From a virus (Duplodnaviria; Caudoviricetes), in IMG/VR virus record IMGVR_UViG_2866513116_000002, positions 17,938-81,937 of that record: a stretch of 64,000 nucleotides of DNA; one strand, written 5' to 3'. Shown piece by piece: positions 47,645-64,000 of this stretch. The notes below the pieces were generated by a model. The model ran no database searches, had not been told where the DNA came from, and worked only from the letters and a program-made list of their open reading frames with translations. Made by a program: the position numbers and the translations under genes. How positions within the stretch are numbered: position 1 is the first letter of the stretch; every line of letters begins with the position of its first letter.

Positions 47645-47654
47645 GGTGTAGCGA

Positions 47655-47960: not shown

Positions 47961-47998
47961 GTCGCGTCAGCACCCATAGGTGGGATAGAACATGACGT

Positions 47999-48598: not shown

Positions 48599-48744
48599 GA
48601 TTCGTTCGGGGCGACCGCGTCCACATTCTCGGCACTGACCGATGGGGCAAGGTGGCGGGCGAGCTCCGACCGCTCATCGCGGTCGACCTCGACGACGGCG
48701 ACAGGGGAGTTTTCGCGGCCGAGGAACTGGAGCATCTGGACTGA
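48595..48744 (+). CDS. Small SH3-like protein, 49 aa (absent from the ORF track)
   Basis: MRFVRGDRVHILGTDRWGKV...VDLDDG...FAAEELEHLD; GTGA coupling. Confidence 0.6.
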   Translation: MRFVRGDRVHILGTDRWGKVAGELRPLIAVDLDDGDRGVFAAEELEHLD

Positions 48745-48752
48745 CCGTCATC

Positions 48753-48775
48753 ACCCACGGTTTACCCACGGTAAA
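48753..48775. repeat. ACCCACGGT direct repeats, candidate integrase arm-type sites
   Basis: Copies at 48753-48761 and 48764-48772, ~110 nt inside the att core. Confidence 0.5.
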
Positions 48776-48825
48776 TAACTGGAATGATGCGCCTCAATAG
48801 AGAGCAGACGGACAGGCGAAGTCTC

Positions 48826-50646
48826 TCACCTGCACCTAGGGCAACGGCATGGACCGCTAGGACCCAGGCGTACCAGCCGACGCATCGAGTAGGTCAGGGG
48901 TTCGATTCCCCTTAGCTCCACCAAAGTGTTCTTACTCGAACCGGTGCCCAAAAGGATGTCGGCGAGGGATAGAGCCAGATCAGAAGAAGACGAGTCGTCA
49001 CCTACAGCCACCGAGGCCTCCGCAAGGGGGTCTCGGTGCGTATCTGGCTCCGTGTAGCCAGCCATCACAGTGGTCGGTCTCGCCTTCCGCGTGAGCTGGT
49101 GCGCAGCATAGAAGTCGTCGAACGGCGGATTGTGACGGCTGCCCTGCACCCCATGCTCATCGACGTAAAAGTGCTGGTAAAACGCCTGGTTGAGGTTTCG
49201 CCGTATGGTGTCGTTCCCGTCGCGGTAGTAGACGGCTGGGTTGGACACGAGTTCGAGGGCTTCGATCAGCACTCCGGCTCCGGCGGCAATCTCAGCCGAT
49301 GTGTTGGCCAGTCCTGCCTCGGCTGATGCGCGGTCAGCCTGGATCTTGCGGAGTTTGGCCCTGACCTTGGCCTGCGGAAGGGCTTCGTCAGCGAGGACGT
49401 CGATGAGTCGGTCTTCCTTGGCTTCGAGTTCTTTGAGTCTGCGTTTCAGGGATGCGTGGAGTTCGGTCACGCTGCGTTGCTCGTCGGCCATGGCGTCCGC
49501 GAGTACTTCTCGAACGCGAGTAACAAAGTGCGGCGGAAGTGTCATCGCGAAGTAGTGATCTACGATCGCCTGCTCGACTCCTTCGGCGGGAAGGTGCGGG
49601 AGGTCGCAGACGCCGTCCTGACGTCCTCGACACAAGAAGTAGGCGTACCGCCGACCTGAGCGACCCCGGGCCTCTGTGAAGATGAGCCGGGATACCTGTC
49701 CGCGCTCTTCGCATCGGGCGCAGAACAGTGTGCCTTTGAGGTAGTGCTGGAGGACTCGGTCGCGCTGCCCTCCTTTGCTTCGTAGGTTCATGACGTCCTG
49801 CACACGGTCAAACAGATCTTGGTCAATGATCGGCTCGTGCCGCCCCTGGTAGATCTCACCTTTGTAGGTCACGTAGCCCAGGTAGTACTGCTCTCTGAGC
49901 ATCCTGTGCAGCCATTTGAATGTGACAGGGCGTTCGGGGAGCTTCGGAGTGGCCCGGGTGGTCAGCCCGAGATCAGCCATGGTCGCTTCGAGCCGCTCAA
50001 GGCCGTATTCCCCGGTGGCATACAGTTCGAATGCTTTGCGCACCAACGGTGCCCGTTTGGGGTCAAGCTGCACGGTGTTGATCTGTCGGCCTTCATGCTC
50101 GACGCGGACGTTCTGGTAGCCGAGCGGCGCTTTGCCTGTGGTGCCGCCGTTGATCGCCTTGTGCTGGAGCTTGATGCGAATGTCTTCGCCGCTGAGGCGA
50201 TTCTGCACCTCGTTGAAGATGTCGGTGACGGCTTCCATGGCGTCGGCATAGACACCATCACCGAAATCTTCACGTGCAGACACGAGTCTGACGTGGAGCT
50301 TGTCCAGGAGGCGTTTCGTTATTGCGGCGTCGATATAGTTCCGGAATGCGCGAGACCTCGCATATACGACGACATACCGAACGTCGGGATTCTCGCGCAG
50401 ATACGCGAGCATGTCCTGAAAGACTTGGCGCTTCTCGATTGTTGACGCCGAGACGCCGGGCTCAACGAACTCGCGTGCAACGATCGCTCCGATGCTGTCC
50501 GCCTTTCGCGTGCTGACCTCACGCTGGGTTGCGATGGAATTTCCATCCGGATCGATGTCAACGGCCGTATCCATCTGCTTCTTGCTCGACACGCGCAAAT
50601 AGAGCACGGCCTTCCCGGCGCCATCGGTGTTGGTCGCGTGAGTCAT
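48826..50646 (-). CDS. Large serine recombinase (integrase)
   Basis: YLRVSS catalytic motif, SRAFRN, APLGY, YYLG, HEPII, Zn ribbon, coiled coil; C-terminus VELRGIEPLT read from antisense tRNA. Confidence 0.93.
   Translation of the reverse strand: MTHATNTDGAGKAVLYLRVSSKKQMDTAVDIDPDGNSIATQREVSTRKADSIGAIVAREFVEPGVSASTIEKRQVFQDMLAYLRENPDVRYVVVYARSRAFRNYIDAAITKRLLDKLHVRLVSAREDFGDGVYADAMEAVTDIFNEVQNRLSGEDIRIKLQHKAINGGTTGKAPLGYQNVRVEHEGRQINTVQLDPKRAPLVRKAFELYATGEYGLERLEATMADLGLTTRATPKLPERPVTFKWLHRMLREQYYLGYVTYKGEIYQGRHEPIIDQDLFDRVQDVMNLRSKGGQRDRVLQHYLKGTLFCARCEERGQVSRLIFTEARGRSGRRYAYFLCRGRQDGVCDLPHLPAEGVEQAIVDHYFAMTLPPHFVTRVREVLADAMADEQRSVTELHASLKRRLKELEAKEDRLIDVLADEALPQAKVRAKLRKIQADRASAEAGLANTSAEIAAGAGVLIEALELVSNPAVYYRDGNDTIRRNLNQAFYQHFYVDEHGVQGSRHNPPFDDFYAAHQLTRKARPTTVMAGYTEPDTHRDPLAEASVAVGDDSSSSDLALSLADILLGTGSSKNTLVELRGIEPLTYSMRRLVRLGPSGPCRCPRCR
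48881..48923 (+). other. 3' half of tRNA-Ala(CGC): prophage attR core / element junction
   Basis: CGCATCGAGTAGGTCAGGGGTTCGATTCCCCTTAGCTCCACCA (anticodon, T-arm, acceptor 3' strand, CCA); no 5' half upstream. Confidence 0.88.
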
Positions 50647-50649
50647 AGG

Positions 50650-51087
50650 TCAGCACTCCTTCGGTGCGCAGGGACATTGTGGGCAGTGAGTGCTGCGTTG
50701 CGGGCAGCTTGCGGTGGACAGTCGGTAGTCGCCTCGTGTGCGGACTGCTCGTTTGGATCGCAAGTCATCGACGTAGTGCTCGGCCTCCTCGACAGCGGAC
50801 TCCGGTAGGTCGGCAAACTTGGCGTTCAGGTACGTGCCGAGGTCCGGCAGGTCGTCGGCGGTGAGCCACCCGACTGTGGTGAATAGTTGCATCGGGCTGA
50901 TACCAAGTACTTTTGCGATGGCGATCAGACTCTCGACTCGCGGTTTGGCGATCATGCCCTGCTCGATGCGCCAAACAGTTCCAGTGTCGACTCCGGCACG
51001 ACGAGCGACTTCGTTGACGCTCAATTTCAACTCGCTACGCTTGCCCGTCAGCAGGTTGATGAGTTTCACCGTTTGATCTGGCGTCAT
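50650..51087 (-). CDS. XRE-family HTH transcriptional regulator
   Basis: LSVNEVARRAGVDTGTVWRIEQG...IAKVLG; ATG at 51087. Confidence 0.88.
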   Translation of the reverse strand: MTPDQTVKLINLLTGKRSELKLSVNEVARRAGVDTGTVWRIEQGMIAKPRVESLIAIAKVLGISPMQLFTTVGWLTADDLPDLGTYLNAKFADLPESAVEEAEHYVDDLRSKRAVRTRGDYRLSTASCPQRSTHCPQCPCAPKEC

Positions 51088-51128
51088 TTCTATTAATTCC
51101 CCTTCTATTTCCCATTGTATAACGAGGC

Positions 51129-51144
51129 ATTGATTAAAATCAAT
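51129..51144. promoter_or_regulatory. Palindromic operator ATTGA-N6-TCAAT
   Basis: ATTGATTAAAATCAAT upstream of XRE gene; second copy at 56942. Confidence 0.6.
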
Positions 51145-51235
51145 AGAAATGCGCAATATAACGCCTAGATTGTTCGCAATTTCGGAACGGAATATTTCGG
51201 AACCTTTGCAGTTTCGAGGCGGTGCTATGCGCGGG

Positions 51236-51850
51236 TTATATGTTGGCATTGAATAGCCAGACTCCGCCCTCAGGGTCGTCGATGCTTGCAATGTCGCCGC
51301 TGGCTTCGAGGTCGCGGGCGATGGCCGCGTAGTCAATGTGGGTGTATTGCTGTACGTACTCGGGCAGCTTTTCCAGTTCCTGGGTGTAGCCGAGGTCGTC
51401 AGCGAATTGTTCGGCGTAGTCGGTGATGGATGCGTAGTGTCCGAGGTAGGCCTCCTGGAAGGCGTCGTCTGGGTCGCTGTCGTCGTCACGTGTGTGGCGC
51501 CACGCCGCGTAGGCGTAGCCGTGCTCAGCGATGCCACGCGCGAGTGCGGCGACGTGCTCGATGCGGTCGTATTCGCCGATCTGGCACTGTCCGAATTGGT
51601 CGTAGTCGTGGATGGCCCATTCTTCGGCGTCGGGCTCCTGTGAGGTGGCGAGCATGGTCGCGATGTCGGCGTAGATGTCGTCGGGGTCGCGGGCGGTGTT
51701 GAGCCAGGTGCCGTGGAGTCGTCCGTTGTTGTAGTCGGCCAAGCTGGCGACGTAGATCGACGGCTTTGGCGACGGGTCGCCTTCGTGGTGGCGCTCGGAG
51801 TCTGCGGTACCCGGCTGTGATGGTTCGTGAGGGGTTTCATTCATTCTCAC
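51236..51850 (-). CDS. ardA: ArdA antirestriction protein
   Basis: IYVASLADYNNGRLHGTW, EEWAIHDYD, YLGHY, IDYAAIARDL; highly acidic. Confidence 0.92.
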   Translation of the reverse strand: MRMNETPHEPSQPGTADSERHHEGDPSPKPSIYVASLADYNNGRLHGTWLNTARDPDDIYADIATMLATSQEPDAEEWAIHDYDQFGQCQIGEYDRIEHVAALARGIAEHGYAYAAWRHTRDDDSDPDDAFQEAYLGHYASITDYAEQFADDLGYTQELEKLPEYVQQYTHIDYAAIARDLEASGDIASIDDPEGGVWLFNANI

Positions 51851-51986
51851 CTCCTTTCGTGGTCATGGGTTGTTGACGGGCCGGGTCGGAACGCGGGGAG
51901 AGCGTGGTGCTCGGTCTCCGTGTCCCGACCCTGGCCCTGGGGTTGCGCCGTGAGGGTTCAGCGGCGTCCGTGTGATGCCGCGGGCA

Positions 51987-52313
51987 TCAGGATGTGGTGT
52001 CACCTCCCTTCGGGCTCCGGCGCGTACGAGACGTTCCGGGAGCGGGTTCGCCGCCGTCGGCGAACAGGGTGGCGATGGCTTCTTGGCGGGCGGCGGCTTC
52101 ACGCTCGATATCGGCGCGAGCTTGTGCGGCCTTGCCTGCCAGTTCCGGATCGTCCTTGGCCCGACTGATGTGCTCGGCGATGGCGATCTGGATTTCATCG
52201 GTGATGGTTCCGTCGCGCAGTTGGGCAATGAAGCTCAGCTGCGCGTGGACATCGGGCTTGAGTTTGATGCCAAGGGTTTTGACGCCTCGGTTCGACTCAT
52301 CGGGTGTGGACAT
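51987..52313 (-). CDS. RHH-like DNA-binding protein
   Basis: KTLGIKLKPDVHAQLSFIAQL; GAGGAGG RBS. Confidence 0.7.
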   Translation of the reverse strand: MSTPDESNRGVKTLGIKLKPDVHAQLSFIAQLRDGTITDEIQIAIAEHISRAKDDPELAGKAAQARADIEREAAARQEAIATLFADGGEPAPGTSRTRRSPKGGDTTS

Positions 52314-52397
52314 TGCGACCTCCTCGGTGCGCTGCGGCCGGTAACCACGGTGTGTGGTTACAGATAACGGCCGCATGACACCGACGAGGCATGAGGT

Positions 52398-53435
52398 TCA
52401 TGCAGCTGCCCCTTCGGGTGGTGCCCGGCGTTCTCGCGCGTCGGCGATCCGCTGTTCGGCGGCGGCAGCGAATGCTGGGTTGATCTCGATGCCCATCCAG
52501 TCGCGGCTGAGCGTCTCGGCGGCGATAGCGGTGGTGCCGCTGCCCATGAAGGGGTCGAGGACCAAGCCTGGCTCCTTGGCCGCGTGGCATCCGCAGGTCG
52601 GTGCAAGGGCGTCGCGGGTAGCGGTTCCGCCGAGCGCGCGGATGACGTTGCGCCGCCACGGTGCTCGGCAGCGCGTGCAGCGAGCTTCGGGGCAGCCGGC
52701 GGCGATCATGCGTTCGGCTAGCTTGAGCGGGAAGATCGCATGGTGGGCAGCCCGGTAGCCGCCTGGGGTGATCGTCCAGACGTCGCCGGGGTTCTTGCCG
52801 AGGGGATGACCGTTTCGTCCCTGGGCTTTGATCGACTGCAGGCCGCTGGCGGCCATCCCGTTCGGTCCGCGCCACGATTCCCGCGCCTGCCCTGTGGCCT
52901 TTGCAGTCTTGCGCTTCGACGTTGATCGGCTCCGTAGCGGTTGGCGGATGGCGTCGAGGTCGAAGAAGTAGCGGGGCTGCTTCGCGAGGACGTAGATGAC
53001 TTCGTAGGTGCAGTTGAGCCGGTCTGGCACGCTGGTCGGGACCGGGTTCGGCTTGGCCCAGACGATCTTGTTGCGGATGATCCAGCCGTTGTCCTGGAGG
53101 CGAAGCGCGAGTCGCTCGGGAGCCATCAGCAGGCTTTTGCGAGCGGCGCCCTGCGACGAGTGGCCTGAGTAGGTGTCGCCGACGTTGAGCCAGAAGGTGC
53201 CGGTCGGGACGAGGACACGGCGGACTTCATCACTGAGTGCTACGAGGTGGGTCACCCAGTCGTCGACGTGAGGTTCGAGCCCGATCTGGCCGTCAGCGCC
53301 GTAGTCACGCAGACGGAAGTACGGAGGACTGGTGACAACACAGTCGACCGAGCCGTCTGCCAGAGCCGAGAGGTGGGTCAGCGCATCGCCGACCACGATT
53401 CGGTTTCGCTCGACTGGTTGTTGATTCGCACTCAT
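52398..53435 (-). CDS. DNA N4-cytosine (SPPY) methyltransferase, beta class
   Basis: VTSPPYF, IVWAKPNP, H.AIFP, LDPFMGSGTT. Confidence 0.9.
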   Translation of the reverse strand: MSANQQPVERNRIVVGDALTHLSALADGSVDCVVTSPPYFRLRDYGADGQIGLEPHVDDWVTHLVALSDEVRRVLVPTGTFWLNVGDTYSGHSSQGAARKSLLMAPERLALRLQDNGWIIRNKIVWAKPNPVPTSVPDRLNCTYEVIYVLAKQPRYFFDLDAIRQPLRSRSTSKRKTAKATGQARESWRGPNGMAASGLQSIKAQGRNGHPLGKNPGDVWTITPGGYRAAHHAIFPLKLAERMIAAGCPEARCTRCRAPWRRNVIRALGGTATRDALAPTCGCHAAKEPGLVLDPFMGSGTTAIAAETLSRDWMGIEINPAFAAAAEQRIADARERRAPPEGAAA

Positions 53436-54427
53436 CGCAAACCTCCAGTGCCGAGGAGCGGTAGGAGGTCCTCTGGTGCGACGACGCGGAACAGCGCGGT
53501 CGGTAGCCGTCGGTCGGCAGCGATTGCGTCGGTGAGATCCTGGCGGCGTCGTTCGGCCCGCTCGGTGTTGGCGTGCGTCACCGACCAGACGACGAGCGGG
53601 AACGCACCGTGTTCGGACTGCTCGAAGCCGGTCTGGCGGTAAGCTTCGTACTCGCGGCACTTGGTGAGCAGTGTCGGGATGTGCTCGGTGCCGAGGTCGA
53701 CTTCGATGAACCAGGCAGAGACGAGGTCGTCGGTTGAGGCAGTTTCGGCGTATAGGTCGGGCTTGAGGATGCGGCGAGCCGATCCGATTCCGGTGAAGCG
53801 GCGCCAACTGGCAGGCTCGACGGCACCGTCGACCAGATCGACGTCCCCGGCTCGGTGGGCCACGACGAGGGCAACGTGGGCATCGGCAATGGCGAGGCGG
53901 TGGTTGACGAAGCGAGGGCTCGGATCGAACCGCAGGCGTCCGGTTCGCCGCCGGTTGGTTTTTCGGGCCAACATTCGATCTCCGGCTACACCGACGTGGA
54001 AGATGAGTCCCGCTGATCCGGCGCGTGTACCGCCGATCCGGCGATCGAGTGTGTCGAGGACGCGAAGTCCTCGTAGGCGGTTCAGCACCCGTCGGGCGAT
54101 GCGGTTGCGCGCGTTCGAGCTGATGGCGGCGAAATGGAGTCCTTCGATCTGGCGGACAGTGAGGAATTGGTGTTCATCGACGGACGCCAGGATTGCGCGG
54201 TCGCGGTCACTAAGACGGTCGGCGATGCGGTCGATGTCGGCGGCAGATAGCCGGCGCCGTGGCCGTGCGGACGGTGTGGTGCCCGTATGGGCACCATCAT
54301 TCCCTGACGGTACGGATGCGGATGATTCGTTGACCAGGGGTGATACGGACGGTGTGGACGACACGACCGGACCAGCGACCGGATCACCGTATGCTGCCTC
54401 ACCCGCCCCGTGTATCGCCCCGTTCAT
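53432..54427 (-). CDS. Replication-relaxation family protein
   Basis: LSDRDRAIL wHTH, H.LAIAD, LKPD, FIEVDLGTE, K...Y motifs. Confidence 0.88.
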   Translation of the reverse strand: MNGAIHGAGEAAYGDPVAGPVVSSTPSVSPLVNESSASVPSGNDGAHTGTTPSARPRRRLSAADIDRIADRLSDRDRAILASVDEHQFLTVRQIEGLHFAAISSNARNRIARRVLNRLRGLRVLDTLDRRIGGTRAGSAGLIFHVGVAGDRMLARKTNRRRTGRLRFDPSPRFVNHRLAIADAHVALVVAHRAGDVDLVDGAVEPASWRRFTGIGSARRILKPDLYAETASTDDLVSAWFIEVDLGTEHIPTLLTKCREYEAYRQTGFEQSEHGAFPLVVWSVTHANTERAERRRQDLTDAIAADRRLPTALFRVVAPEDLLPLLGTGGLR

Positions 54428-56625
54428 GCCTGCCTCCGTCGTCGCCGGGGGCCGCCGATGTCGTCGGCGTCGGTCGTGTGCTGCGCACCCTCGATGAGCG
54501 CGGTGAAGCTGGCTTCGATGTCGGCGAGCGGTTGTCCGTAGCGGTCGCGGCTGCGACGGCGAATGGCGGCGGGGTCGCTGCTGGTGGCTGGCGCGGGGTT
54601 GGTGGCTCCGGACGCCCAGGGCTGGACGGCGTTGTCGCGCACCAGGCTGGCGTAGATGTGGTGGGCCGGGAGCCGGGTGAAGTCCTCGACAGTGAGGACG
54701 GATTGCCCGGCCACCATTTCCTTGGCGTCACCAGCTTGGAGCTGGAAGCAGACGCGCGAGCGGGCGTTGTTGCGGAATGCGTCGAGCATCGACGATGGCA
54801 GCTGCTTCTCATACTGGTGAGCCAGGTGAAACCCGGCGCGCAGACTCCGAGCGGTTGCCAGGGCGTCGCCGAGATCGGTGGGAAGTCGGAGGTAGTCCTG
54901 CACCTCGTCGATGTAGATCATCACCGGGTCGCGTTGGTCTTCGGGTGTTCCGACGCGTTCGCGGATGGCTTGCCAGAGTTCGGCGACGACCAGCGCGCCG
55001 AGCAGTTGGGCGTTCTCCGGCCCAACAACACCTTTTTGGAGCGGGACGAGCAGCACCTTCTTCTCCGACAACGCCTGCCGCACGTTGAACTTCGGATGTT
55101 GTTGAGCCAGCACATCGCGAAGAGGCCTGCTCAGCAGCGGGCGCAGCTTGTTGCTCAGGGGTGCGATGGTGGTGGCGGTTGCTTCCGGCGACAAGCTGTC
55201 GAACCACTGCCAGAACGGCCCAGCGGCAAACGGGTCGGACTCCATGACGCCGCGGGTCAGGCGGCGGCGGAAGCCGGGATTGGTCAGCAGCAACGGCAGC
55301 ATGACGAGGCTGGCGTCGTCGCGGCGGGCGAGGAGATCGAGGCAGTTACGCAGGATGTCGGCCGATCGCGGCCCGAGACCGTCGCCCCAGATGGCTTTGA
55401 GGGTGCCGAACAGGGCGTCGGCCACCACCTCGGGTGAGCGCCCGTGACGGTTCTGGGCATCGAGCGGATTGATGCCGACGGGTGCTTCATCGAACAGGTC
55501 GAGCACGACGATGTCGCCCTGGCGCTTCTCCGGTATGCGGGCCAGGAGGTCGGCGATCAGGTCCTTCGGCTCGATGACCACCACGGGGCGGTCGGCTTCG
55601 AGGTCTTGGATGATGAGGTTTAACAGCAACGTCGACTTGCCGACGCCGTTCGGTCCGATCACCCATGTGTGCCGGAGTGCGTCGGTGACGTTGTAGCCGA
55701 TGGTGCCGTGCGCGCCTGGTGCGCTGGCTTCGGCGACGACGCGCACACCTTGTGTGAGGGCATTGCTTGGCCGGACGGGGCGAGGGTGGATCGGTGGCTG
55801 GCCGGGAAAGTGTTCGTCGCGATCGGCGATGGGCCACCCTGACAAGCGCGCTACTTCGGTGACGGTGAGGCGCTGGGATGGCGTGAACATTGACCATGAG
55901 GCGCGCGGTGTGTTGACGCGGGCGCTATTCTCTTGCCGCAGCATGATCCGAACGTCGGGTGCTTCGGTAGTCCCGATTGCCGCTGAGAGTCCGGTCAGCA
56001 GCACCTTTCGCCGCTCGGCGGTCCCTGCTTTTGCGCCGAGGCGGACGGCGGCGGTGAACGCGTGCTGGCCGAGCTTGTGTGTGAGGGCCTGTTTGGCGTC
56101 GGGGCGGTTCTCGCTGAGGACTCCGTGGATCAGCTTCGACACTGTGGGCTGGTTGTCGCGCATCAACGTCTGAGGCGGACTCTGGGGGTGATGGCGGGGG
56201 CCAAGCACGATCTGGATGGTGAGTTGTTCACCCTTCCCGACCGCAGTCAGGGCGTGCAGGATGGAGCGATGTGAGGCCACCGCGTCGACGGGCTCCAGTT
56301 GACGAAGGCTGGTACTCAACTGCACTCGGCGGGCCGTGGTGACGTGTTCCCGGTCGGCAGTATCGAAACTGGTGACGATGGCGCCATCGACGAGTTGCTC
56401 AACAGCACGCCGGACGGCCGCCCGGTGCCGGAGCTGACTCCCGATTAGGTATTCTACGCCAGTCACGTCGGCACGCGCTTCGAGGATCAGTTGAGGTGCA
56501 TGGGTCCGTGCAGCAAAGTGCCGCAGCAATCCGAACGCTGTCGTCTCTGGAAGTGGTTGCGGCCAAAACAGCTGTTGCCACACCATCGATCCCGCCGACA
56601 CGGTGGTCTCACCCAGCTCAGTCAT
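54424..56625 (-). CDS. TraD/VirD4-like coupling ATPase
   Basis: H.WVIGPNGVGKS Walker A, IEPK.DL, YIDEVQ Walker B, ARS...LAHQ. Confidence 0.88.
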   Translation of the reverse strand: MTELGETTVSAGSMVWQQLFWPQPLPETTAFGLLRHFAARTHAPQLILEARADVTGVEYLIGSQLRHRAAVRRAVEQLVDGAIVTSFDTADREHVTTARRVQLSTSLRQLEPVDAVASHRSILHALTAVGKGEQLTIQIVLGPRHHPQSPPQTLMRDNQPTVSKLIHGVLSENRPDAKQALTHKLGQHAFTAAVRLGAKAGTAERRKVLLTGLSAAIGTTEAPDVRIMLRQENSARVNTPRASWSMFTPSQRLTVTEVARLSGWPIADRDEHFPGQPPIHPRPVRPSNALTQGVRVVAEASAPGAHGTIGYNVTDALRHTWVIGPNGVGKSTLLLNLIIQDLEADRPVVVIEPKDLIADLLARIPEKRQGDIVVLDLFDEAPVGINPLDAQNRHGRSPEVVADALFGTLKAIWGDGLGPRSADILRNCLDLLARRDDASLVMLPLLLTNPGFRRRLTRGVMESDPFAAGPFWQWFDSLSPEATATTIAPLSNKLRPLLSRPLRDVLAQQHPKFNVRQALSEKKVLLVPLQKGVVGPENAQLLGALVVAELWQAIRERVGTPEDQRDPVMIYIDEVQDYLRLPTDLGDALATARSLRAGFHLAHQYEKQLPSSMLDAFRNNARSRVCFQLQAGDAKEMVAGQSVLTVEDFTRLPAHHIYASLVRDNAVQPWASGATNPAPATSSDPAAIRRRSRDRYGQPLADIEASFTALIEGAQHTTDADDIGGPRRRRRQA

Positions 56626-56866
56626 CGGCAGACTCCATTGCATCGGCCTGCTCTTCCGATGTCGACTTGTCCACGTGAGTTCCGGTCAGCGCCTGATCGA
56701 TATCTGCTTGTAGTTCGGCCTCGCGCATGGCCATCGCGATCACCGCACGGCTGAGCTTGCGGAGGTCTGGCTGGTCGCGCCGAACCCCGTGCACGACGAT
56801 CTGGCGATCTGACTTCGGCGTACCCCGAGCCCCACGCCGATAGTTTGTTCTTCCTGTTTTAGACAT
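56618..56866 (-). CDS. Small basic hypothetical protein
   Basis: GGAGG RBS; VRRDQPDLRKLSRAVI motif. Confidence 0.7.
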   Translation of the reverse strand: MSKTGRTNYRRGARGTPKSDRQIVVHGVRRDQPDLRKLSRAVIAMAMREAELQADIDQALTGTHVDKSTSEEQADAMESADD

Positions 56867-57092: not shown

Positions 57093-57287
57093 CTACCAGC
57101 CACGAAAGCGCCGATACACCAGAGCGCTGCTACTGCCGACGATCACGACGATGGCGATCGTGACACATAGCGGCACCCAGATCTCGCGCAAGATGTAGAT
57201 TGCTCCGGCCAGCGCCATGACGGCAATTAGGACAGTGATGCAGGTATCGAGTAGTCGGCCACCAAGCCCGCCGGGGTCGCCACTCAC
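57093..57287 (-). CDS. Small two-TM protein
   Basis: Two hydrophobic helices; coupled. Confidence 0.7.
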   Translation of the reverse strand: MSGDPGGLGGRLLDTCITVLIAVMALAGAIYILREIWVPLCVTIAIVVIVGSSSALVYRRFRGW

Positions 57288-57859
57288 GACGACTCCCGGC
57301 GTATCTCACGCAAAATGCCCTGCTCGAACCCGAACCGTTGGCACTCTAGATCGAACAGTTCCTGGTCGGCTGGAAACCGACGTGTCACCGCGTTGATGAT
57401 CACCTGGCCCAAAGTGTCGGCCTTCAGGAAGGCGTATTCTAAACTGCCTGAACTGAATCCGTCGCGCTCCAGCTCGGACAGATGCCAGAGTGCCAGCGCG
57501 TACTCATCAGGGAGCGAGAAGCTCAGGTCGTGTTCGACGTGGGCCACGTCGTGGACGTACCTCCACGCGAAGTTGGCGTCGGGACTGGTCAGGATCACCG
57601 AGGCCGAGTTCTCCGACGACACCCGCAGCGACGCACCCGACCGCTTCGAGCGAGCGAATGCCGCACACAGATCGGGGTAAGTCGATGGCGCGTCCGCACG
57701 GGGTACCCAGGCGAAGCCCTCGCGGCGGACAGTGTCCGTGGCGGTCTGCATCACCCAGCGCGTGAGATTGTCTCTCGCTCGTGCGATCTCTGCGGTGGAG
57801 ACGTAGTCGGATTGCGTGCCCACGAGCAGGTCGGTCAGATCTGGCGTGGTGTCGGTCAT
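57284..57859 (-). CDS. Hypothetical protein with HDxxH...E metal-binding motif
   Basis: NFAWRYVHDVAH...DE. Confidence 0.75.
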   Translation of the reverse strand: MTDTTPDLTDLLVGTQSDYVSTAEIARARDNLTRWVMQTATDTVRREGFAWVPRADAPSTYPDLCAAFARSKRSGASLRVSSENSASVILTSPDANFAWRYVHDVAHVEHDLSFSLPDEYALALWHLSELERDGFSSGSLEYAFLKADTLGQVIINAVTRRFPADQELFDLECQRFGFEQGILREIRRESS

Positions 57860-58113
57860 TGCACACCGCCCCGTCCGACGCAACGGGTGCACTGGCAGAC
57901 GATGCTGTGAGGTGCGGCGGCTTCCGCCATCTGCTGGATCGCTGTCGTCGTGAGTCGGTTGATCCGAGCCTCGGCCAGTCGGCGCTCGCGGTTGACGCGG
58001 GCGATCTCGGCGTGCCGGTCGGCTTCGTCGCAGAGGCTAGCAACGAAGCCGACCAGGAACAATACGGCCAGGAGTCCAGCGACCACGGCGAAGATGATCA
58101 GGAGCATAATCAT
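57856..58113 (-). CDS. Single-TM coiled-coil protein
   Basis: N-terminal TM; coupled. Confidence 0.7.
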   Translation of the reverse strand: MIMLLIIFAVVAGLLAVLFLVGFVASLCDEADRHAEIARVNRERRLAEARINRLTTTAIQQMAEAAAPHSIVCQCTRCVGRGGVQ

Positions 58114-58457
58114 CGGCGGTTCACCGCCCGACTGGTATCCGCGACGATCTGGCCGACGCCCATAACGGTCATCGTCTTGATGAAGTCCAGGTCGCCGGAC
58201 GCAGCTGGTGCCGCGAGGGCGAGCTGTTGCTGCATCTGTGCTACCAAGGCGACCTGCTGCATGGCGTAGGCACCGGTGCGGGCGACAGCATCGACCTTGA
58301 CCTGCTGAATCTCGCCAGCGGCGGCAATTCGGGCGGTCGTGATGTCAGTGCCGTGATCGATGGCGGCGAGGTCGCGGGCGGTCTGGCGGGCCAGCCGGCC
58401 ACCGGTGGTTGGTCGGCTTGGGAATGTGGACTGGGTGTATGGCTCGATTGATGGCAT
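58110..58457 (-). CDS. Hypothetical helical protein
   Basis: AAGGAG RBS. Confidence 0.75.
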   Translation of the reverse strand: MPSIEPYTQSTFPSRPTTGGRLARQTARDLAAIDHGTDITTARIAAAGEIQQVKVDAVARTGAYAMQQVALVAQMQQQLALAAPAASGDLDFIKTMTVMGVGQIVADTSRAVNRR

Positions 58458-58601
58458 TGGAATGCTCCTTCGCGAGTCGGGCTATCCGGCGTCTGCCGGA
58501 CACCACTTACGATTCAGCCGAACGGAGGACATACGCTAGGTCACAGACTGGGCATATACTGGGCTCTCACGAACTGCCGCCCGACCTGCGAAGGGAGCCT
58601 G

Positions 58602-59393
58602 GTGACCACGACGAAGCTTCCGGTGCAAAAGCAGCCGCCGCTGCTCGAAGACCTTGTCGAGCCACTCAAGGAGATCCTCAAGACGGGCTTGCCGGTCAGC
58701 TTCGACTTCGGCGACATGAATCTGCTGGCGCTTCGTGGAGTCGTCGCGCGATCTGTGATGCCACACGATCGGCTCAGCCGTATCAAGGCCCTCAACGAGC
58801 TGCTCGCCCGCCTGCTTGTTCATTACCCGGACGATTCGCTCGGTGAAGCAGCACGGATCGTGTTCGGTCTGGCACCGGGCGTTCGTGGTTTAACCCTCAC
58901 GCAGCGCAGAGAACGGGCAGCGTCAGAGATCGAGCGAGAGGCCGACCACTTTCGCAAACGCATCGAGCCCAAGATCGTACGTGAACTCGCTAGACAACTG
59001 CATAGCGACTCACAAAACTACGTCCCGCGCACGACGCCGACCCCGGAGCCGGTAGAAGTATCTGGCGATACGCCCTACATCGCGGTGGGAGACGTTGCCA
59101 GCCACGACAAGGCGCTGCGCGAAGAAGCGGTATCCCGGCTGTGGGCAAACGTATACGCACTGCGCGCCGAAATCCTGCGCGTCGAGCGGCTGAAGAACTG
59201 GCCGTACGACCCCACAGAACCGCAGCTCAGCCAAGACAAGCTCCACGAAGCGCTCAAGGCGCGTACGTCAGCACGGACCGACGCCCAGCGTGCAATCCAG
59301 GAGTTCGTCGCAGACCACGGATCGGCCATCACCTCAGGAGCCGCCGAGTTCAACGTCGAAGGACTTGAACGGCTGGTGAGATGGAACACATGA
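58602..59393 (+). CDS. Hypothetical protein, possible HTH regulator
   Basis: Divergent from 58457; AARIVFGL...LTLTQRRERAA resembles a sigma-region-4-type HTH. Confidence 0.7.
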   Translation: MTTTKLPVQKQPPLLEDLVEPLKEILKTGLPVSFDFGDMNLLALRGVVARSVMPHDRLSRIKALNELLARLLVHYPDDSLGEAARIVFGLAPGVRGLTLTQRRERAASEIEREADHFRKRIEPKIVRELARQLHSDSQNYVPRTTPTPEPVEVSGDTPYIAVGDVASHDKALREEAVSRLWANVYALRAEILRVERLKNWPYDPTEPQLSQDKLHEALKARTSARTDAQRAIQEFVADHGSAITSGAAEFNVEGLERLVRWNT

Positions 59394-59495: not shown

Positions 59496-59612
59496 GTGTC
59501 TGTCAGCACAGACGCCCTCACAGCCTTGCCGACTACGAAGGTCACAGCCACGACACACAAAGCGATTACAATCTGCCTCCAGGCAGGACTTTTAACGAGC
59601 GAAGGCAACTGA
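59496..59612 (+). CDS. Candidate 38-aa Thr-rich peptide (50 aa if started at ATG 59460)
   Basis: AAGGAAG RBS then GTG; TGA overlaps the radical SAM ATG (TGATG). Confidence 0.35.
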   Translation: MSVSTDALTALPTTKVTATTHKAITICLQAGLLTSEGN

Positions 59613-60742
59613 TGACCCCTCTCTTGCAGCGGCACATCTCTAGTCGCGAGCACGCTGTCAATATCGAGCGTCCCGACTCGGGCGAGGCGGCTCGTTGGAT
59701 CGAGTTGTGGCGAGGAGACGCACTCGCATCGAGGCTGCGGATCTCGCTGACTGCGCAATGCAACTTCGGGTGCTTCTTCTGCCACAACGAGGGACAATCG
59801 ACCGGAAGCTCCGTGTTGCAGCGCAACCTCGGAATCGACGACTATATGCGGGTTGTCTTTGCCGCTGCCGATTCAGGCATCACTGATATTAAATTGACGG
59901 GTGGGGAACCCCTTCTCTATCGCGATGGGACGCGGGGGATTGTTGAGTTAGTCGATCAGTTGTCGAAAGTACGTGATTCGTATCCGATCAATATCTCGAT
60001 GACAACAAACGGCAGCCTACTTCGTCGGTATGCGCGCGACCTGAAGTCAGCGGGACTTGACCGCGTAACGCTTAGTATTCATTCGCTCAGCGAAGCGGGA
60101 TTCACTGCATTTATCGGGAAAACGGTTTCTAGCCGGTATCAGTCTCCTGAGGCGGCCCTCGCCATTCTGCGGGAGGTGAAGTTTACGCAGACTAAAATCA
60201 ACACAGTCGTGTTTGGTAGCGAATCTGCTGGTAGTCTATCGGAATTACGCGATATCGACCAACTTTCGAGGCAGTATAACGTTGTTGATCATCGCCTGTA
60301 CACCATAATTGATTCCGAACGCAATGGCGTGAGCGACGAGTGGGTCCGTTATTGGAACGACGGACGGCTCCCCATGGAAGTCAGTCGAGCCCTCAGTCTC
60401 AATACGCAGGACTCACAGATATTTTGCGATTCGGTTGAAGAGTATATCGGAACGCGGTCACCGGATTTGCTTCCTCGAAGCATTCTTAGGTTGAAGATCG
60501 GTGGTGCGTCATACAGCATCGAAGCTATGAAGCCGGGTCGCTTTGTCTCTCAAGGCCTTTCCGATGAGGGGCCATACGCACTGCGGCTAGCTGCAGATGG
60601 CACACTGCGCAGTTTTCTACCCCCGGTTGAGCGCGACCCAGCTCCGACCGAAAATCTGACATCCTCAACCGGTGTACTCGCGTCTGCTGAGGTGCTTCGT
60701 CGTTGCTTCGACACCGCCCGGGCAACGCTAGCAAAGAGCTAA
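59612..60742 (+). CDS. MoaA-like radical SAM enzyme lacking auxiliary-cluster cysteines
   Basis: LRISLTAQCNFGCFFCHNEG, KLTGGEPLL, MTTNGSLL, KINTV, LRLAADGTL. Confidence 0.88.
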   Translation: MTPLLQRHISSREHAVNIERPDSGEAARWIELWRGDALASRLRISLTAQCNFGCFFCHNEGQSTGSSVLQRNLGIDDYMRVVFAAADSGITDIKLTGGEPLLYRDGTRGIVELVDQLSKVRDSYPINISMTTNGSLLRRYARDLKSAGLDRVTLSIHSLSEAGFTAFIGKTVSSRYQSPEAALAILREVKFTQTKINTVVFGSESAGSLSELRDIDQLSRQYNVVDHRLYTIIDSERNGVSDEWVRYWNDGRLPMEVSRALSLNTQDSQIFCDSVEEYIGTRSPDLLPRSILRLKIGGASYSIEAMKPGRFVSQGLSDEGPYALRLAADGTLRSFLPPVERDPAPTENLTSSTGVLASAEVLRRCFDTARATLAKS

Positions 60743-60746
60743 CGGC

Positions 60747-62174
60747 GTGCCCACGGGTGTAGGCGAGTTTCGGTTAGGGAAGCTCGATGTCTGGTATATG
60801 CATGCAATCGATATATCTGCACTAACTTCGGAATGGGATACTCTCTGGGATACTCTAATTAAGGTAAGGTCCGCAGTAGATCTGAGAGACGCCGCATTTT
60901 CATTGATCGTGGATAGCAATGGTGTGGGTCGCTCATACTCCGAGGATATGCAGACATGGATGCAACAGGCCAGAGCGCGGCGCGGAAAAGCAATCTGGAA
61001 CGACGCCTTTCTCAAGGAAGAGGCGCCGTTCAAGATTGGTATTGACTCAAATCTATCCAGCGGGGACGTATCGCTACCAACCAATGAGCGCCTCTCGCGG
61101 GAGGCTACCGATGATCTGCATTACGCCCGGTTTGTATCGCACTCGATGAAGATCTACCCCGAGGGTGTCATAACGTACTCGATCTGCTACCGCCTCGTCC
61201 ACAAAGTTTCAACCTCGATCGACGCGGAAAATTCACAACCTCCCCTATCTACACCCCGCGCCATCGCTATTTTAGACGGACTAGAAGATGTATCCTGGTT
61301 ATCCTTCAAACAGCTCGTCCAAGACTGGCTCCGAGGGAATACCGTAGCTGAGGGACTTTGCAAGGCATTCTCGGTCGAATCAGAATTCGATTGTACCGAA
61401 CTGCAAATGAATGATTTCAAACGACGAAGTCGAACGCATAAGCTCTTGGTTCTTGAGGCGGTACTACGACCAGCAATCGATGGCGAGCATAGCGATTCCG
61501 GTTTCGACGGATGGTGCCGGGTTTCTCCTGAAGATGCGCTACTCGACCCGAGTGTAGCCGGGCTTCTAAACACGGCGACATGGTACAAGGAGTACCGGCC
61601 TAAGTACCTAATAGGGTTGGCTGAGAAGAACATTGGTTACCGCATCGATGAGATCTACCTGACAGACCGCAAAGCATCTTTGGTGTCCAATGCGGGGTTC
61701 TGGCACCAGGACAACCCTCTGCAAGAGTACAGAAAGGATATATGCATTGTCATCGAGTATTGGCTCGCCAAACTCGTTCAGGCACATGCGCTGTTACGAT
61801 TCCTGCAGGAGCATCGAACAATACGCGAAATTAGCAACGTTACCCCGTCGGAAGCTCTGGATCCCGTGGTTGTGTCAAAGCGGGCTGTTGCTCGACTCCG
61901 GGAATCGCTGGATCCATCTCGCTTAATCGACCATGGATTTACCACGGCGTTTATGATGCGGATGCGAACTGAAATGGAATTAGATACGCTGCTTCGGTTT
62001 ATTGACGAGCGCGTCGATGACGCCGCGACGAATATCGCCCTCCGGTCGGCGGTAACTGCGGAGGGTGTGGTCGCGCAGAAATCGCTGAAAATCGGATACT
62101 GGACGCTCGTATTTACGATCATCGTTCTCATCGTGACCTTGATCGGCGTGGCGGTAAATCCCTTCGTTACATGA
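60747..62174 (+). CDS. Large soluble domain plus C-terminal TM protein (CorA-like architecture)
   Basis: Long amphipathic helices leading into IGYWTLVFTIIVLIVTLIGVAV; start codon uncertain. Confidence 0.75.
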   Translation: MPTGVGEFRLGKLDVWYMHAIDISALTSEWDTLWDTLIKVRSAVDLRDAAFSLIVDSNGVGRSYSEDMQTWMQQARARRGKAIWNDAFLKEEAPFKIGIDSNLSSGDVSLPTNERLSREATDDLHYARFVSHSMKIYPEGVITYSICYRLVHKVSTSIDAENSQPPLSTPRAIAILDGLEDVSWLSFKQLVQDWLRGNTVAEGLCKAFSVESEFDCTELQMNDFKRRSRTHKLLVLEAVLRPAIDGEHSDSGFDGWCRVSPEDALLDPSVAGLLNTATWYKEYRPKYLIGLAEKNIGYRIDEIYLTDRKASLVSNAGFWHQDNPLQEYRKDICIVIEYWLAKLVQAHALLRFLQEHRTIREISNVTPSEALDPVVVSKRAVARLRESLDPSRLIDHGFTTAFMMRMRTEMELDTLLRFIDERVDDAATNIALRSAVTAEGVVAQKSLKIGYWTLVFTIIVLIVTLIGVAVNPFVT

Positions 62175-62200
62175 CATGCTATGGCGATAATTCTGCCAGT

Positions 62201-62226
62201 CACAATGTCAATTCGTTGACATTGTG
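62201..62226. terminator. 11-bp hairpin with TTCG loop (terminator or operator)
   Basis: CACAATGTCAA-TTCG-TTGACATTGTG, 27 nt after the stop; contains TTGACA. Confidence 0.55.
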
Positions 62227-62337
62227 GCCGGAATACTCTATATATAGGGCGAGAGTACTCTGAAATTCTGCGGTAGGTCTGCGTGAGCCGGAACCTGTCG
62301 CAGAAGCGATGGGAATCCTGCATCAAAGGAGACTCTC

Positions 62338-62505
62338 GTGAAGAGACCATTGTGGGTAGTTTTGTTGACCGCAGTTGCTATTTACTTTGCAGTAGGGGTG
62401 TCGACGACGTCCGTCCTCGATCTCGGTGCGAAGATGGCATTATCAGGTATAAGTATCTTGATAGTGCTGGTGGGAATGATTTCCATGTTCACCAGGCGCG
62501 ATTGA
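62338..62505 (+). CDS. Two-TM microprotein, 55 aa (absent from the ORF track)
   Basis: AAGGAG RBS, GTG start, MKRPLWVVLLTAVAIYFAVG...ISILIVLVGMISMFTRRD, followed by hairpin. Confidence 0.7.
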   Translation: MKRPLWVVLLTAVAIYFAVGVSTTSVLDLGAKMALSGISILIVLVGMISMFTRRD

Positions 62506-62512
62506 CGAAACT

Positions 62513-62549
62513 GGCCTTCTGAGCGCTACCGCTCAGAAGGCCTCTTTCT
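62513..62549 (+). terminator. Intrinsic terminator
   Basis: GGCCTTCTGAGCG-CTAC-CGCTCAGAAGGCC 13-bp stem then TCTTTCT. Confidence 0.7.
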
Positions 62550-62857: not shown

Positions 62858-64000
62858 TCAGGCTGCCTCGTGCTGCGAATCGTCGCGAAGCACTTCTGTG
62901 TCGAGCGTCCAGGTGAACGTAAAACCGGCCTTCGGCATGAGCCACCCGATTGCTTCGACTGAGATCGTCCGTCCGGGAGTTCGGTCAGGACTGCGCGAGA
63001 GCTGTGTTGGCCGAGTGGTCGCAACTGATTCAATGACGCGCATGTCGACGATGTTGGTGTTCGTGTAGTCGAATGACACGGTCATGTTGCGTGCTGGCTG
63101 CGGCAACTCGAAGTAGAGACGATGTCCCCAAGTGGGCGTCACGGTACGGAACACTTGTCTGATGCGGATTGGCTCGTCGGTCTTTGCGCCTGCGTCGAGG
63201 TGGACTGAGTATGTCTGGCCGTCCTTGCGGACCGTGCGGCGGATGGGCTGTGGCCGGCCATCGACGGTGAGTTCGAGTAGTTCGTAGCTTTCGCGGCTGG
63301 ACGCGTCCATGCCTGGTCGAGGCTTCATGAACCAGGGTGACGTGGCCGGAATGTCAAGGAGCAGGTCGTTGTACTCGTCTCGGTCTGAAACACAGGCGAA
63401 GCGGCGGACGCTTCCCGATGGCACGGTGGTGTATTCCCACTCCACGGTAACGTCGAACAAAGCAGTACCCTCGGTGCTGCTCTCTAGTGCACTGGCGAGA
63501 CGGATACGAACTTCGACGTCGTGCCAGCGTTCGGCGGCGCGGATCGCCTGATCGCGGATCTCGCTGTAGATCTCGCGGGCGAACTGTTCGTCGCCTAAGC
63601 GCAGCGACATGACGTTGGCGGCGATGTCGTCGAGCAGCGCGGGGTTGGCTACGCGCTTGAGATCCTCGGGATGGATGGCGAAGCCTTCGACCACCGCGTC
63701 ACGCATGGCAGGCGCTTGCTCTTTGATGATCGTGCGGAACTGCTCGACGGTCGCCGCTTCCTGATCCTTGCGGAAGCTGTACTCGAACAGCGTGCCCAGC
63801 AGTCCAGCGCCAAACAATGTTCCGCCGAGCTCTCCGAGCGGCAGGGCGTGCAACCAGTTCCACGGACCGAGGTCGAGCGTTGCAAGCCAGCCGTTCAGGG
63901 TGATGAGGACGATTCCGGCGAGCGTCAGGATCACGGCGAGCAAGGCCGCTTTTGTCTTACGGAGTCGGAAAGCTAAGGAGGACTGTCGTTTTCGTGCCAT
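62858..64000 (-). CDS. Membrane protein with two N-terminal TM helices and a large soluble domain
   Basis: 380-aa ORF with high-GC codon usage; start at the window edge. Confidence 0.8.
   Translation of the reverse strand: MARKRQSSLAFRLRKTKAALLAVILTLAGIVLITLNGWLATLDLGPWNWLHALPLGELGGTLFGAGLLGTLFEYSFRKDQEAATVEQFRTIIKEQAPAMRDAVVEGFAIHPEDLKRVANPALLDDIAANVMSLRLGDEQFAREIYSEIRDQAIRAAERWHDVEVRIRLASALESSTEGTALFDVTVEWEYTTVPSGSVRRFACVSDRDEYNDLLLDIPATSPWFMKPRPGMDASSRESYELLELTVDGRPQPIRRTVRKDGQTYSVHLDAGAKTDEPIRIRQVFRTVTPTWGHRLYFELPQPARNMTVSFDYTNTNIVDMRVIESVATTRPTQLSRSPDRTPGRTISVEAIGWLMPKAGFTFTWTLDTEVLRDDSQHEAA

Follow-up and report, generated by a model that had tools for sequence, protein, structure and literature searches.

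What do a radical SAM enzyme and a membrane-anchored protein accomplish together when they are encoded as a tightly spaced pair on mobile DNA? The question is raised by the window, the whole stretch of 64,000 nucleotides analysed here, in which a preliminary description had singled out a two-gene operon as a candidate defence or signalling system. Re-reading of the sequence confirmed both ORFs and the 4-nt gap between them (60743-60746): gene A (59612..60742, + strand, ATG start, TAA stop) encodes a 376-aa radical SAM enzyme of a MoaA-derived clade (P0001), and gene B (60747..62174, + strand, GTG start, TGA stop) encodes a 475-aa partner of an unannotated family (P0002). Since residues 9-59 of gene B are conserved among its homologues, its long GTG start is favoured over a database call of 416 aa. 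Together the two genes form a self-contained cassette of 2.6 kb. Its GC content had been described as lower than that of the surroundings and indeed ranges from 0.508 to 0.550 in 500-nt windows between 59750 and 62499, compared to 0.636-0.690 (52000-56499) and 0.634-0.660 (57250-58749) outside. Overall, the contrast is 0.51-0.55 in the cassette versus 0.62-0.69 in the flanks.

Promoter and terminator scans around the cassette stayed at the level of shuffled sequence, the sole strong signal being a hairpin at 62513-62542. An 11-bp stem with a TTCG loop, read from the sequence 27 nt past the gene B stop (62201..62226, + strand), possibly marks the operon end or a processing site; it was not called by the terminator scan because it has no T run. 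A 55-aa two-helix ORF (62338-62505) was considered as third component and rejected, as eight of nine other loci have no hydrophobic small ORF within 700 nt past the partner. The exception, locus L012, has such an ORF, but it lies antisense inside a NUDIX gene that is found 7 nt past the pair.

Co-occurrence of the two genes elsewhere had been set beforehand as a test on which the proposed pairing could fail. Neighbourhoods were taken from 11 related loci, and in all nine with upstream DNA (L003-L010, L012) a gene A homologue was found directly upstream of the partner and on the same strand, which left the pairing unrefuted; L011 and L013 have no upstream DNA and were not counted. The nine paired loci represent eight independent cases, since L008 and L009 are near-identical, and as the pairing recurs in every testable locus it is not a product of chance. 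The spacing between the genes ranges from an 8-nt overlap to a 48-nt gap, and in each of ten further pairs the A and B homologues agree in source and in the length of the longest contig. Among 577 ORFs from the 11 loci, A and B turned out to be the only genes common to at least four loci. The pairwise identities among A proteins correlate with those among B proteins (r = 0.87, 28 pairs), with only 1 of 5000 Mantel permutations giving a correlation as high. This evidence, drawn from parts of the enzyme family other than one 11-member subclade, supports that A and B are a conserved, co-inherited unit.

What kind of enzyme does gene A encode? The preliminary description had called it MoaA-like, and MoaA (GTP 3',8-cyclase) is its best profile match (E 2.3e-34) as well as its top Foldseek match (1tv7_B, E 3.9e-12, TM 0.56/0.63), yet the enzyme stays below the equivalog cut-offs and falls into a clade of its own. 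The best NCBIfam match is again moaA, reached with the N-terminal half only (TIGR02668, 131.3 bits versus a cut-off of 325.25), and the other scores are also under the cut-off (TIGR02666, 125.4 versus 284.05; NF001199, 120.5 versus 231). In Pfam, PF04055 (80.9 bits) and PF13353 are the only matches, and PF06463 (Mob_synth_C) was not found in the scan. In the phylogenetic tree, the gene A clade is separated from 16 MoaA sequences with an SH-aLRT value of 100. In the structural comparison, MoaA is followed by viperins (Foldseek, E ~1e-9), and AbmM (8WM2, E 5.4e-28) and BlsE (7VOB, E 5.7e-22), both nucleoside-antibiotic enzymes, are the second and third PDB profile matches. All of these best matches act on nucleosides or nucleotides. 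The comparisons support the view that the enzyme is derived from MoaA, but is not an ordinary MoaA.

The residues of the predicted active site point in the same direction. The enzyme has 51 homologues. In an alignment of 40 members of its family (alignment A4), the cysteines of the radical SAM [4Fe-4S] motif, C50-x3-C54-x2-C57 (codons 59759..59782, + strand), are invariant in all 40, embedded in the family-invariant stretch CNxxCxFCHNEGQ and aligned with C24, C28 and C31 of MoaA. All enzyme motifs quoted earlier (CxxxCxxC, GGE, TTNG, KIN, LRL..DG) were recovered in P0001, where they read KLTGGEPL, TTNG, K195-I-N197 and LRLAADG besides the cysteine motif. CxxxCxxC, GGEPL, TNG, KxN and RLxxDG are shared with MoaA (Staphylococcus aureus 1TV7, 1TV8 and 2FB3; TIGR02666, TIGR02668). 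Equivalents of MoaA R17, K163, N165 and R268, presumably the triphosphate-contact residues, are invariant in the enzyme family, R268 being aligned with R325 of gene A. The one support for such a role used here is the title of entry 2fb2, which names Arg17/266/268; R266 is not conserved and corresponds to A323 in gene A. A C-terminal Gly-Gly, a motif of MoaA, is not visible in the gene A protein.

A further difference from MoaA concerns the auxiliary cluster, which binds guanine in that enzyme. Three cysteines located just ahead of QEGxYAxR are kept in seven of the 40 aligned family members and missing from the remaining 33. In the window, residues 313-333 (QGLSDEGPYALRLAADGTLR; 60548..60610, + strand) cover the site of these cysteines, which is deleted according to alignment A4; the MoaA-like RLxxDG comes next. 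Since there is no Cys triplet ahead of SDEGPYALRL, the absence claimed in the preliminary description stands. Cluster-bearing and cluster-less members are found on one tree, and the family therefore illustrates how an enzyme of cofactor biosynthesis takes on a new role once it has lost the cluster that determines its chemistry; it is of interest regardless of what that role is. In further contrast to MoaA, gene A is always paired with a membrane protein and has no molybdenum cofactor context.

The family of the partner comprises only 92 representatives among 1.84 billion proteins; P0002 has no Pfam or NCBIfam family, and none of 67 family members analysed has a Pfam match. A PDB search with the partner profile gave nothing below E 0.2, and the nearest named Atlas clusters are PF27233 and PF27230 (MJ0711_N and MJ1566_N), with no mention of MJ0711 or MJ1566 found in the literature searched. 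The AF2 model (pLDDT 83.8) contains a large soluble part of alpha/beta and helical structure, and its helix 412-474 extends into the sole hydrophobic segment at residues ~451-472 (codons 62097..62162, + strand; hydropathy scan), so the earlier picture of a soluble domain, long helices and a terminal membrane segment holds. A crude hydropathy scan detected a hydrophobic segment at the C terminus of 66 of the 67 members, with exactly one segment in 47 and two flagged in 12. A pair of cysteines forms a loop in the outside tail of 10 of the 67 partners, and D22, K81, D301, E302, Y328 and H396 are nearly invariant across the 67. The longest of the 92 representatives measures 573 aa in a search without length restriction, and no fused A-B form was found among them. 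Likewise, no longer form was found in proteins of 1004-2865 aa, the word-based searches having excluded lengths of 833-1003 aa.

Does this protein belong to the CorA-like channels, as had been suggested? Foldseek and VIA give some reason for the comparison, but each below the significance line. In the Foldseek search proposed earlier, the first ten rows for gene B are all CorA or ZntB at weak E values of 0.05-0.12 (8zak_A, E 0.05). CorA, ZntB or CmaX also account for 22 of 50 rows in the pdb_via comparison, with Z scores up to 7.1, a range that is common for helical models; the best match, 8tme_C (Z 7.1), aligns 183 residues of model positions 20-473 with chain positions 112-325. Comparison by hhalign of three alignments (A1, A2, A3) with nine actinobacterial CorA sequences yielded probabilities of 0.4-6.7%, covering the membrane helix only. 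In fold, the partner appears weakly similar to CorA/ZntB/Mrs2 (MIT) channels (PF01544) as regards its alpha/beta domain in the cytoplasm, its bundle of helices and the long stalk helix that leads into the membrane. However, those channels have two C-terminal membrane helices and a GMN-type loop, whereas the partner has one helix and the GMN motif occurs in none of the 67 members; its cytoplasmic part is ~200 residues larger and profile-level similarity to PF01544 is lacking. The label 'CorA-like' depends on this weak, sub-threshold likeness of fold.

The genomic surroundings point to a mobile lifestyle. The preliminary description had placed the cassette in the cargo slot of a mobile element. 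In partial support of this, a large serine recombinase, a Replic_Relax protein and a TrwB-like ATPase are encoded upstream (48826-56643), and a C5 methylase, a SacI-type endonuclease, GmrSD and an Mrr-like gene follow 6-11 kb downstream of the cassette. A search for direct repeats bounding the element found none of at least 13 nt between 47501-51000 and the downstream 17 kb. Mobile genes also occur at other loci, namely a TrwC relaxase (L003), an integrase (L006) and a transposase (L008). The partner was found in none of 60 related genomes, of which 36 belong to the same genus and 24 to the same order. The pair travels as a rare mobile unit in distant microbes.

At L003, the pair has RmrA/RmrT, HEC-09 and a type II methylase as neighbours at distances of up to 5 kb, and in both this locus and the window the pair resides among restriction and toxin-antitoxin genes on conjugative elements. 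Of the six loci with long flanks, two (the window and L003) clearly show such a defence context, which was not found among the scanned neighbours of the other four, L004, L005, L008 and L012. The scanned neighbours at L004, L005, L007, L008 and L012 are mostly housekeeping genes or belong to no recognised family (they include G6PD, aminotransferase, PMT, pectate lyase, TruB, aldehyde dehydrogenase and histidine kinase genes), and none of them gave a convincing PADLOC match. At L004 and L006, homologous EEP phosphoesterases adjoin the pair. Searches for relatives in viral and plasmid DNA gave 58 pattern matches in viral contigs, none of which was confirmed, no match at E <=0.001 in a BFVD fold search and no relative in a tblastn search of phage records and plasmids with the partner.

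Considering these findings, we tentatively read the pair as a self-contained, horizontally mobile two-gene module that most likely serves as a conflict system directed against phages or mobile elements, a reading that we regard as possible rather than probable. How could such a module work? Gene A keeps the predicted SAM-cleaving cluster and several putative triphosphate-contact residues but has lost the guanine-binding auxiliary cluster. It may thus use radical chemistry to alter the sugar of a nucleoside triphosphate, releasing a product other than the molybdopterin precursor. Gene B is predicted to be tail-anchored: its large domain would face the cytoplasm, a single helix at the C terminus would cross the membrane, and the tail outside would be short or Cys-looped. 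The layout loosely recalls CorA with its alpha/beta domain, helical bundle and long stalk helix running into the membrane. Upon infection, the nucleotide product of the enzyme would bind to the conserved polar pocket of the cytoplasmic domain of B, and the ligand-bound protein would oligomerise or open, depolarise the membrane and abort the infection. Against this scenario, nothing points to an infection sensor. Taken to its full extent, the scenario would describe the first immune signalling system with a second messenger made by a radical SAM enzyme, in which a MoaA descendant converts a (possibly phage-specific) NTP to a sugar-modified ligand that opens a single-helix, CorA-shaped pore to abort infection; we consider this unlikely as a whole. 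The pair might also exemplify a broader and so far undescribed tendency of MoaA-derived enzymes to be combined with membrane-anchored nucleotide-binding partners. Because the cassette is small and self-contained, and because the three cluster cysteines as well as the membrane helix are clear targets for mutation, testing the hypothesis is cheap.

The pair may be an antiviral system that is so far undescribed. In agreement with the preliminary description, the libraries and literature searched contained no system with such a pairing; a published account was not found, and supplementary candidate lists in defence-discovery papers could mention the pair. The PADLOC check proposed earlier returned no model fitting the pair: gene A matched the pVip models only, and weakly, and the sole match of gene B was a SAVED-TM model (E 0.013). 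A related idea comes from type III CRISPR, where CorA-family effectors are reported to be activated by SAM-AMP (PMC10600005, PMC12255297). By analogy, a nucleotide-derived signal might act here on a CorA-type membrane protein in antiviral defence, a likeness in idea only. In contrast to type III CRISPR, the signal would here be produced by a radical SAM enzyme instead of Cas10, Pfam or PADLOC scans of ORFs in the window and in L015 found no cas genes, and the partner fails the sequence tests for CorA with its one membrane helix and missing GMN. Radical SAM enzymes also appear as one part of multi-gene anti-phage systems in Ophion, consisting of OpnA, PHP and PRTase (bioRxiv 10.1101/2025.09.30.679545), in KpAvs2-Avap1-Avap2, together with the Avs2 STAND protein and DUF6375 (PMC11564622), and in HXS, together with an HxS-repeat effector (PMC13128918). 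None of the three is described with a CorA-like or tail-anchored partner, and we rejected all three as the same system since their partners differ. Should the pair prove to be a defence system, radical SAM chemistry would be added to cyclases, TIR domains and Cas10 as a source of antiviral nucleotide signals or poisons, and the partner would define a new, unannotated family of membrane effectors or sensors.

A different division of labour is conceivable, in which the enzyme, like a viperin, makes a chain-terminating or poisonous nucleotide from an NTP and the membrane protein is not the killer but a sensor, regulator or anchor that activates the enzyme when the envelope is perturbed or tethers it at the membrane. 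Besides the structural match to viperins, pVip models are the only PADLOC matches of gene A (64.7 and 53.3 bits, for models that carry no cut-offs in PADLOC-DB v2.0.0); the tight spacing and co-divergence of A and B would fit a physical complex, the Cys-pair loop in the outside tail could sense an external cue and the NUDIX and EEP neighbours fit nucleotide processing. Like gene A, pVips (NF038283) are radical SAM enzymes related to MoaA, and they act on NTPs, the predicted substrate of gene A. However, 64.7 bits are below the viperin equivalog cut-off of 180, gene A sits inside the MoaA-derived clade, its membrane partner is obligatory and no fusion of the two proteins occurs among the 92 representatives. 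To our knowledge, described pVips need no membrane partner. We consider such a viperin-like mode of action rather doubtful.

Alternatively, the pair might have no immune function and instead act as an accessory physiological module, in which a modified nucleoside or cofactor-like molecule is made and handled at the membrane (export, uptake or ion-linked sensing) and which is carried by mobile elements for a niche advantage. AbmM and BlsE, the next profile matches after MoaA, are likewise radical SAM enzymes with nucleoside or nucleotide substrates, the neighbours scanned at L004, L005, L007 and L012 are ordinary metabolic or cell-wall genes, and CorA-type folds are transporters. Yet, no other biosynthetic gene is common to the loci or conserved around the pair, whereas AbmM and BlsE presumably sit within multi-gene antibiotic clusters, and a protein with one membrane helix and no GMN would make a poor transporter. 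Rarity, patchy distribution, low GC content and contexts of mobile elements and restriction genes are moreover typical of conflict genes, and this physiological role appears improbable to us.

Still less convincing, and in our view quite improbable, is an addiction or stabilisation module, in which the membrane protein would be a toxin silenced by the enzyme or by its short-lived product, and a cell that loses the element would die. A tightly coupled, co-diverging two-gene unit on conjugative or integrative elements, at L003 even beside the toxin-antitoxin-type defence pair RmrAT, would suit such a role. Against it, both proteins are very large for a toxin-antitoxin system, the libraries searched contained no radical SAM antitoxin and several loci have no mobile-element gene among the scanned neighbours.

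Two further readings were rejected. There is a very slim chance that the enzyme modifies a small Thr-rich peptide encoded upstream (59460/59496-59612), with the membrane protein serving for export or immunity as in a RiPP-type pair: the upstream ORF overlaps the ATG of gene A (TGATG, 59610-59614) and SkfB and SuiB are among its lower Foldseek matches (E ~1e-8), but the small upstream ORFs at seven other loci visibly resemble neither the window peptide nor each other, no SPASM, twitch or RRE domain was found in gene A with Pfam and NCBIfam, and it is the nucleotide-contact residues of MoaA that are conserved instead. Least probable of all is an ordinary MoaA paralogue that makes 3',8-cH2GTP for the molybdenum cofactor, since the best family and fold match of gene A is offset by scores of 125-131 bits versus cut-offs of 284-325, the missing PF06463 and auxiliary-cluster cysteines and the separate clade; and while neither moaC, as claimed before, nor any other molybdenum cofactor gene is among the neighbouring ORFs scanned, a canonical moaA (C1:62633-63568) and moaC (C1:66074-66475) are already present on another contig of the genome.

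The radical SAM enzyme gene (gene A, 59612-60742, + strand; 376 aa, P0001) and the gene of its partner with a C-terminal membrane helix (gene B, 60747-62174, + strand; GTG start, 475 aa, P0002) are spaced by 4 nt. The GC content of the cassette is 0.508-0.550 over 59750-62499 compared to 0.636-0.690 over 52000-56499, which confirms the lower-GC two-gene operon of the preliminary description. A TTCG hairpin with an 11-bp stem, read from the sequence, lies 3' of gene B (62201-62226). The database entry for gene B (P0003) is shorter (416 aa); we prefer the 475-aa start since homologues conserve residues 9-59: V15, L37 and R41 are invariant in one partner-family alignment (A1), and D22 and L26 nearly invariant in another (A3).

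Pattern scans seeded with gene B yielded three genome loci (Acidimicrobiia MAG, Solirubrobacterales MAG and, as L005, Kribbella sp.) and eight metagenome loci, L006 among them. Employing tblastn, we found a gene A homologue directly upstream and on the same strand in all nine loci having upstream DNA, so that the co-occurrence expected in the preliminary description holds. Among these loci, L007 contains only the 3' part of the gene A homologue, and L009 is nearly identical to L008; the two other loci, L011 and L013, have no upstream DNA and were kept outside the pairing count. When all 577 ORFs of at least 70 aa from the loci and the window were compared, genes A and B were the only ones common to at least four loci, and the clusters common to three loci turned out to be antisense ORFs within the two genes. 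Pair by pair, identities among A homologues track those among B homologues (r = 0.87; 1 of 5000 permutations as high), and paired loci occur in every main subclade of the gene A tree covered by context data, which is all but one of 11 members. Ten further pairs of A and B homologues match in source and in the length of the longest contig, which is circumstantial and says nothing on adjacency. The A+B module itself is well supported. A search of 60 further genomes from the same genus and order found no gene B homologue.

Gene A belongs to a MoaA-derived family of its own. In Pfam it matches only PF04055 (radical SAM core, at residues 44-209) and Fer4_12, and the best NCBIfam models are three MoaA equivalogs, which match with their N-terminal halves only (120-131 bits; cut-offs 231-325). 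A word-based search gave, among the matches listed, 51 family proteins (P0011-P0061; E 1e-90 to 1e-32), most with a query coverage of ~80-90%, before scores step down to true MoaA proteins carrying PF06463 (E 2.6e-22 or weaker, coverage 42-65%). In a tree of 47 family and 16 MoaA sequences, the family forms one side of a branch with an SH-aLRT of 100. The AF2 model (pLDDT 87.9) is structurally closest to MoaA (1tv7_B, E 3.9e-12, TM 0.56/0.63), and the family profile matches MoaA (E 2.3e-34), AbmM (5.4e-28) and BlsE (5.7e-22) in the PDB. The same genome encodes a canonical moaA with Mob_synth_C on another contig, with moaC 3 kb away.

The CxxxCxxC motif and several of the MoaA-like nucleotide-contact positions are indeed kept. 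In the alignment, MoaA residues R17, C24/28/31, R71, N104, K163, N165 and R268 correspond to gene A R43, C50/54/57, K94, N133, K195, N197 and R325, all of which are invariant across the 40-sequence family alignment, whereas MoaA R266 is replaced by A323. We take these MoaA residues to hold the triphosphate, which the title of entry 2fb2 supports by naming Arg17/266/268. The auxiliary-cluster cysteines are missing from gene A, as previously described, due to a short deletion there, as in 32 others of the 40 aligned members. Three cysteines right before QEGxYAxR, at the position of the MoaA auxiliary-cluster binding site, are retained in the remaining seven (P0045, P0049, P0052, P0057, P0058, P0060 and P0061), and three of these enzymes (P0049, P0052 and P0060) are found in the same-source pairs. 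Since the cysteine-keeping enzymes are split over two subclades of the family tree, repeated loss of the auxiliary cluster is probable.

For gene B, no Pfam or NCBIfam family was found, the single PADLOC match is at chance level (E 0.013), a sequence search against the PDB gave nothing, and 67 family members matched no relevant Pfam family. A profile search against 1.84 billion representatives retrieved 92 proteins at E <= 0.001 (longest 573 aa), 60 of them at <= 1e-30. One of the 92, P0167, is from a Candidatus Heimdallarchaeaceae MAG and matches the family profile (E 2.1e-41), so that, judged by its sequence, the family extends to Asgard archaea. The AF2 model (pLDDT 83.8, pTM 0.83) combines alpha/beta elements with a helical bundle, and its 63-residue helix 412-474 terminates in the sole hydrophobic segment; residues 1-445 are taken as the soluble domain. 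A crude hydropathy scan detected a C-terminal hydrophobic segment in 66 of the 67 members, with exactly one segment in 47 and two flagged in 12. The tail past the membrane helix contains a Cys pair in ten of the 67, and a Cys pair at this position suggests that the tail is located outside the cell. Gene B had been described as a CorA-like effector, of which a possible architectural resemblance of the model stands, but not family membership. CorA/ZntB proteins occupy all of the first ten Foldseek rows, yet with E 0.05-0.12; VIA-align gave the same Z of 7.1 for the CorA proteins of C. jejuni, over 148 aligned residues, and T. maritima, over 183 (model 20-473 against chain 112-325), and CorA, ZntB or CmaX make up 22 of the 50 rows listed, interspersed with coiled-coil proteins of equal Z. 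Comparison of the family with nine actinobacterial CorA sequences by hhalign reached a probability of <= 6.7%, and none of the 67 members carries a GMN motif. The nearest named Atlas clusters are leads only.

The conserved cassette does not appear to include the small ORFs around it. A Thr-rich ORF (59460/59496-59612, +), whose stop overlaps the gene A ATG (TGATG), has no visible likeness among the small ORFs preceding gene A homologues in the seven other loci examined for it. Downstream, an ORF of 55 aa (62338-62505, +) encodes two hydrophobic helices; it has an AAGGAG-type ribosome-binding site, and a strong terminator hairpin of 13 bp comes after it (62513-62542). We ruled it out as a conserved part because eight of nine other loci examined have no small hydrophobic ORF after gene B; the sole exception, in L012, is antisense within a NUDIX gene. 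The adjoining 263-aa (58602-59393, +) and 380-aa proteins (62858-64000, - strand; N-terminal hydrophobic segment) have no family in Pfam or PADLOC and are not kept beside the pair in other loci.

As to function, which we infer, we favour a conflict system in which gene A would produce a sugar-modified nucleotide that would act via the membrane protein, gene B; the signal-to-pore version of this is tentative. The pairing was not found described in the literature searched, in which the radical SAM defence systems Ophion (bioRxiv 10.1101/2025.09.30.679545), Avap1 (PMC11564622) and HXS (PMC13128918) have other partners. A close rival, a viperin-like poison made by gene A with gene B as sensor or anchor, appears rather unlikely. 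Viperins are the next structural matches of the gene A model after MoaA (~1e-9), followed by BlsE and SkfB, and gene A scores 64.7 bits with the viperin NCBIfam model against a cut-off of 180.

The genomic context bears on a second close rival, a non-immune accessory function of the pair, which we consider similarly doubtful. Left of the cassette, the window encodes a large serine recombinase, an HTH protein, a Replic_Relax protein and a TrwB-like ATPase. The DNA extending the window to the right (L015) encodes GNAT and DUF6338 proteins and a defence cluster (L015 8598-14120, approximately window-equivalent 70563-76085) of a C5 DNA methylase, a SacI-family endonuclease, a GmrSD type IV enzyme (stretch with GC 0.49-0.52) and an Mrr_cat-like gene, followed by a Na/H exchanger at host-like GC. 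In the Acidimicrobiia MAG locus (L003), an RmrA/RmrT pair and a HEC-09/NYN-like gene (3267-5772) lie beside a TrwC relaxase, together with a type II methylase, just upstream of the cassette; an integrase (L006) and a transposase (L008) occur near other copies. Against a defence reading counts that the rest of the neighbours scanned in L004, L005, L007, L008 and L012 have housekeeping or unknown roles and gave no convincing PADLOC match, as does the finding of no relative in phage, viral or plasmid collections. Nucleotide phosphoesterases beside the pair in three loci may be optional third components. In L012, a NUDIX gene (2818-3330) begins 7 nt past the partner, and EEP-family phosphoesterases abut the pair in L004 (11599-12450, -) and L006 (327-1094); the two EEP proteins are mutually homologous and located on different sides of the pair.

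Separately from the cassette, a 20-kb stretch of the prophage had no megablast match among 50,697 phage records. A prophage minor tail protein (window 36410-38071, +) is ~49% identical to Mycobacterium phage counterparts and matches 2666 phage records, mostly of Mycobacterium and Gordonia phages.
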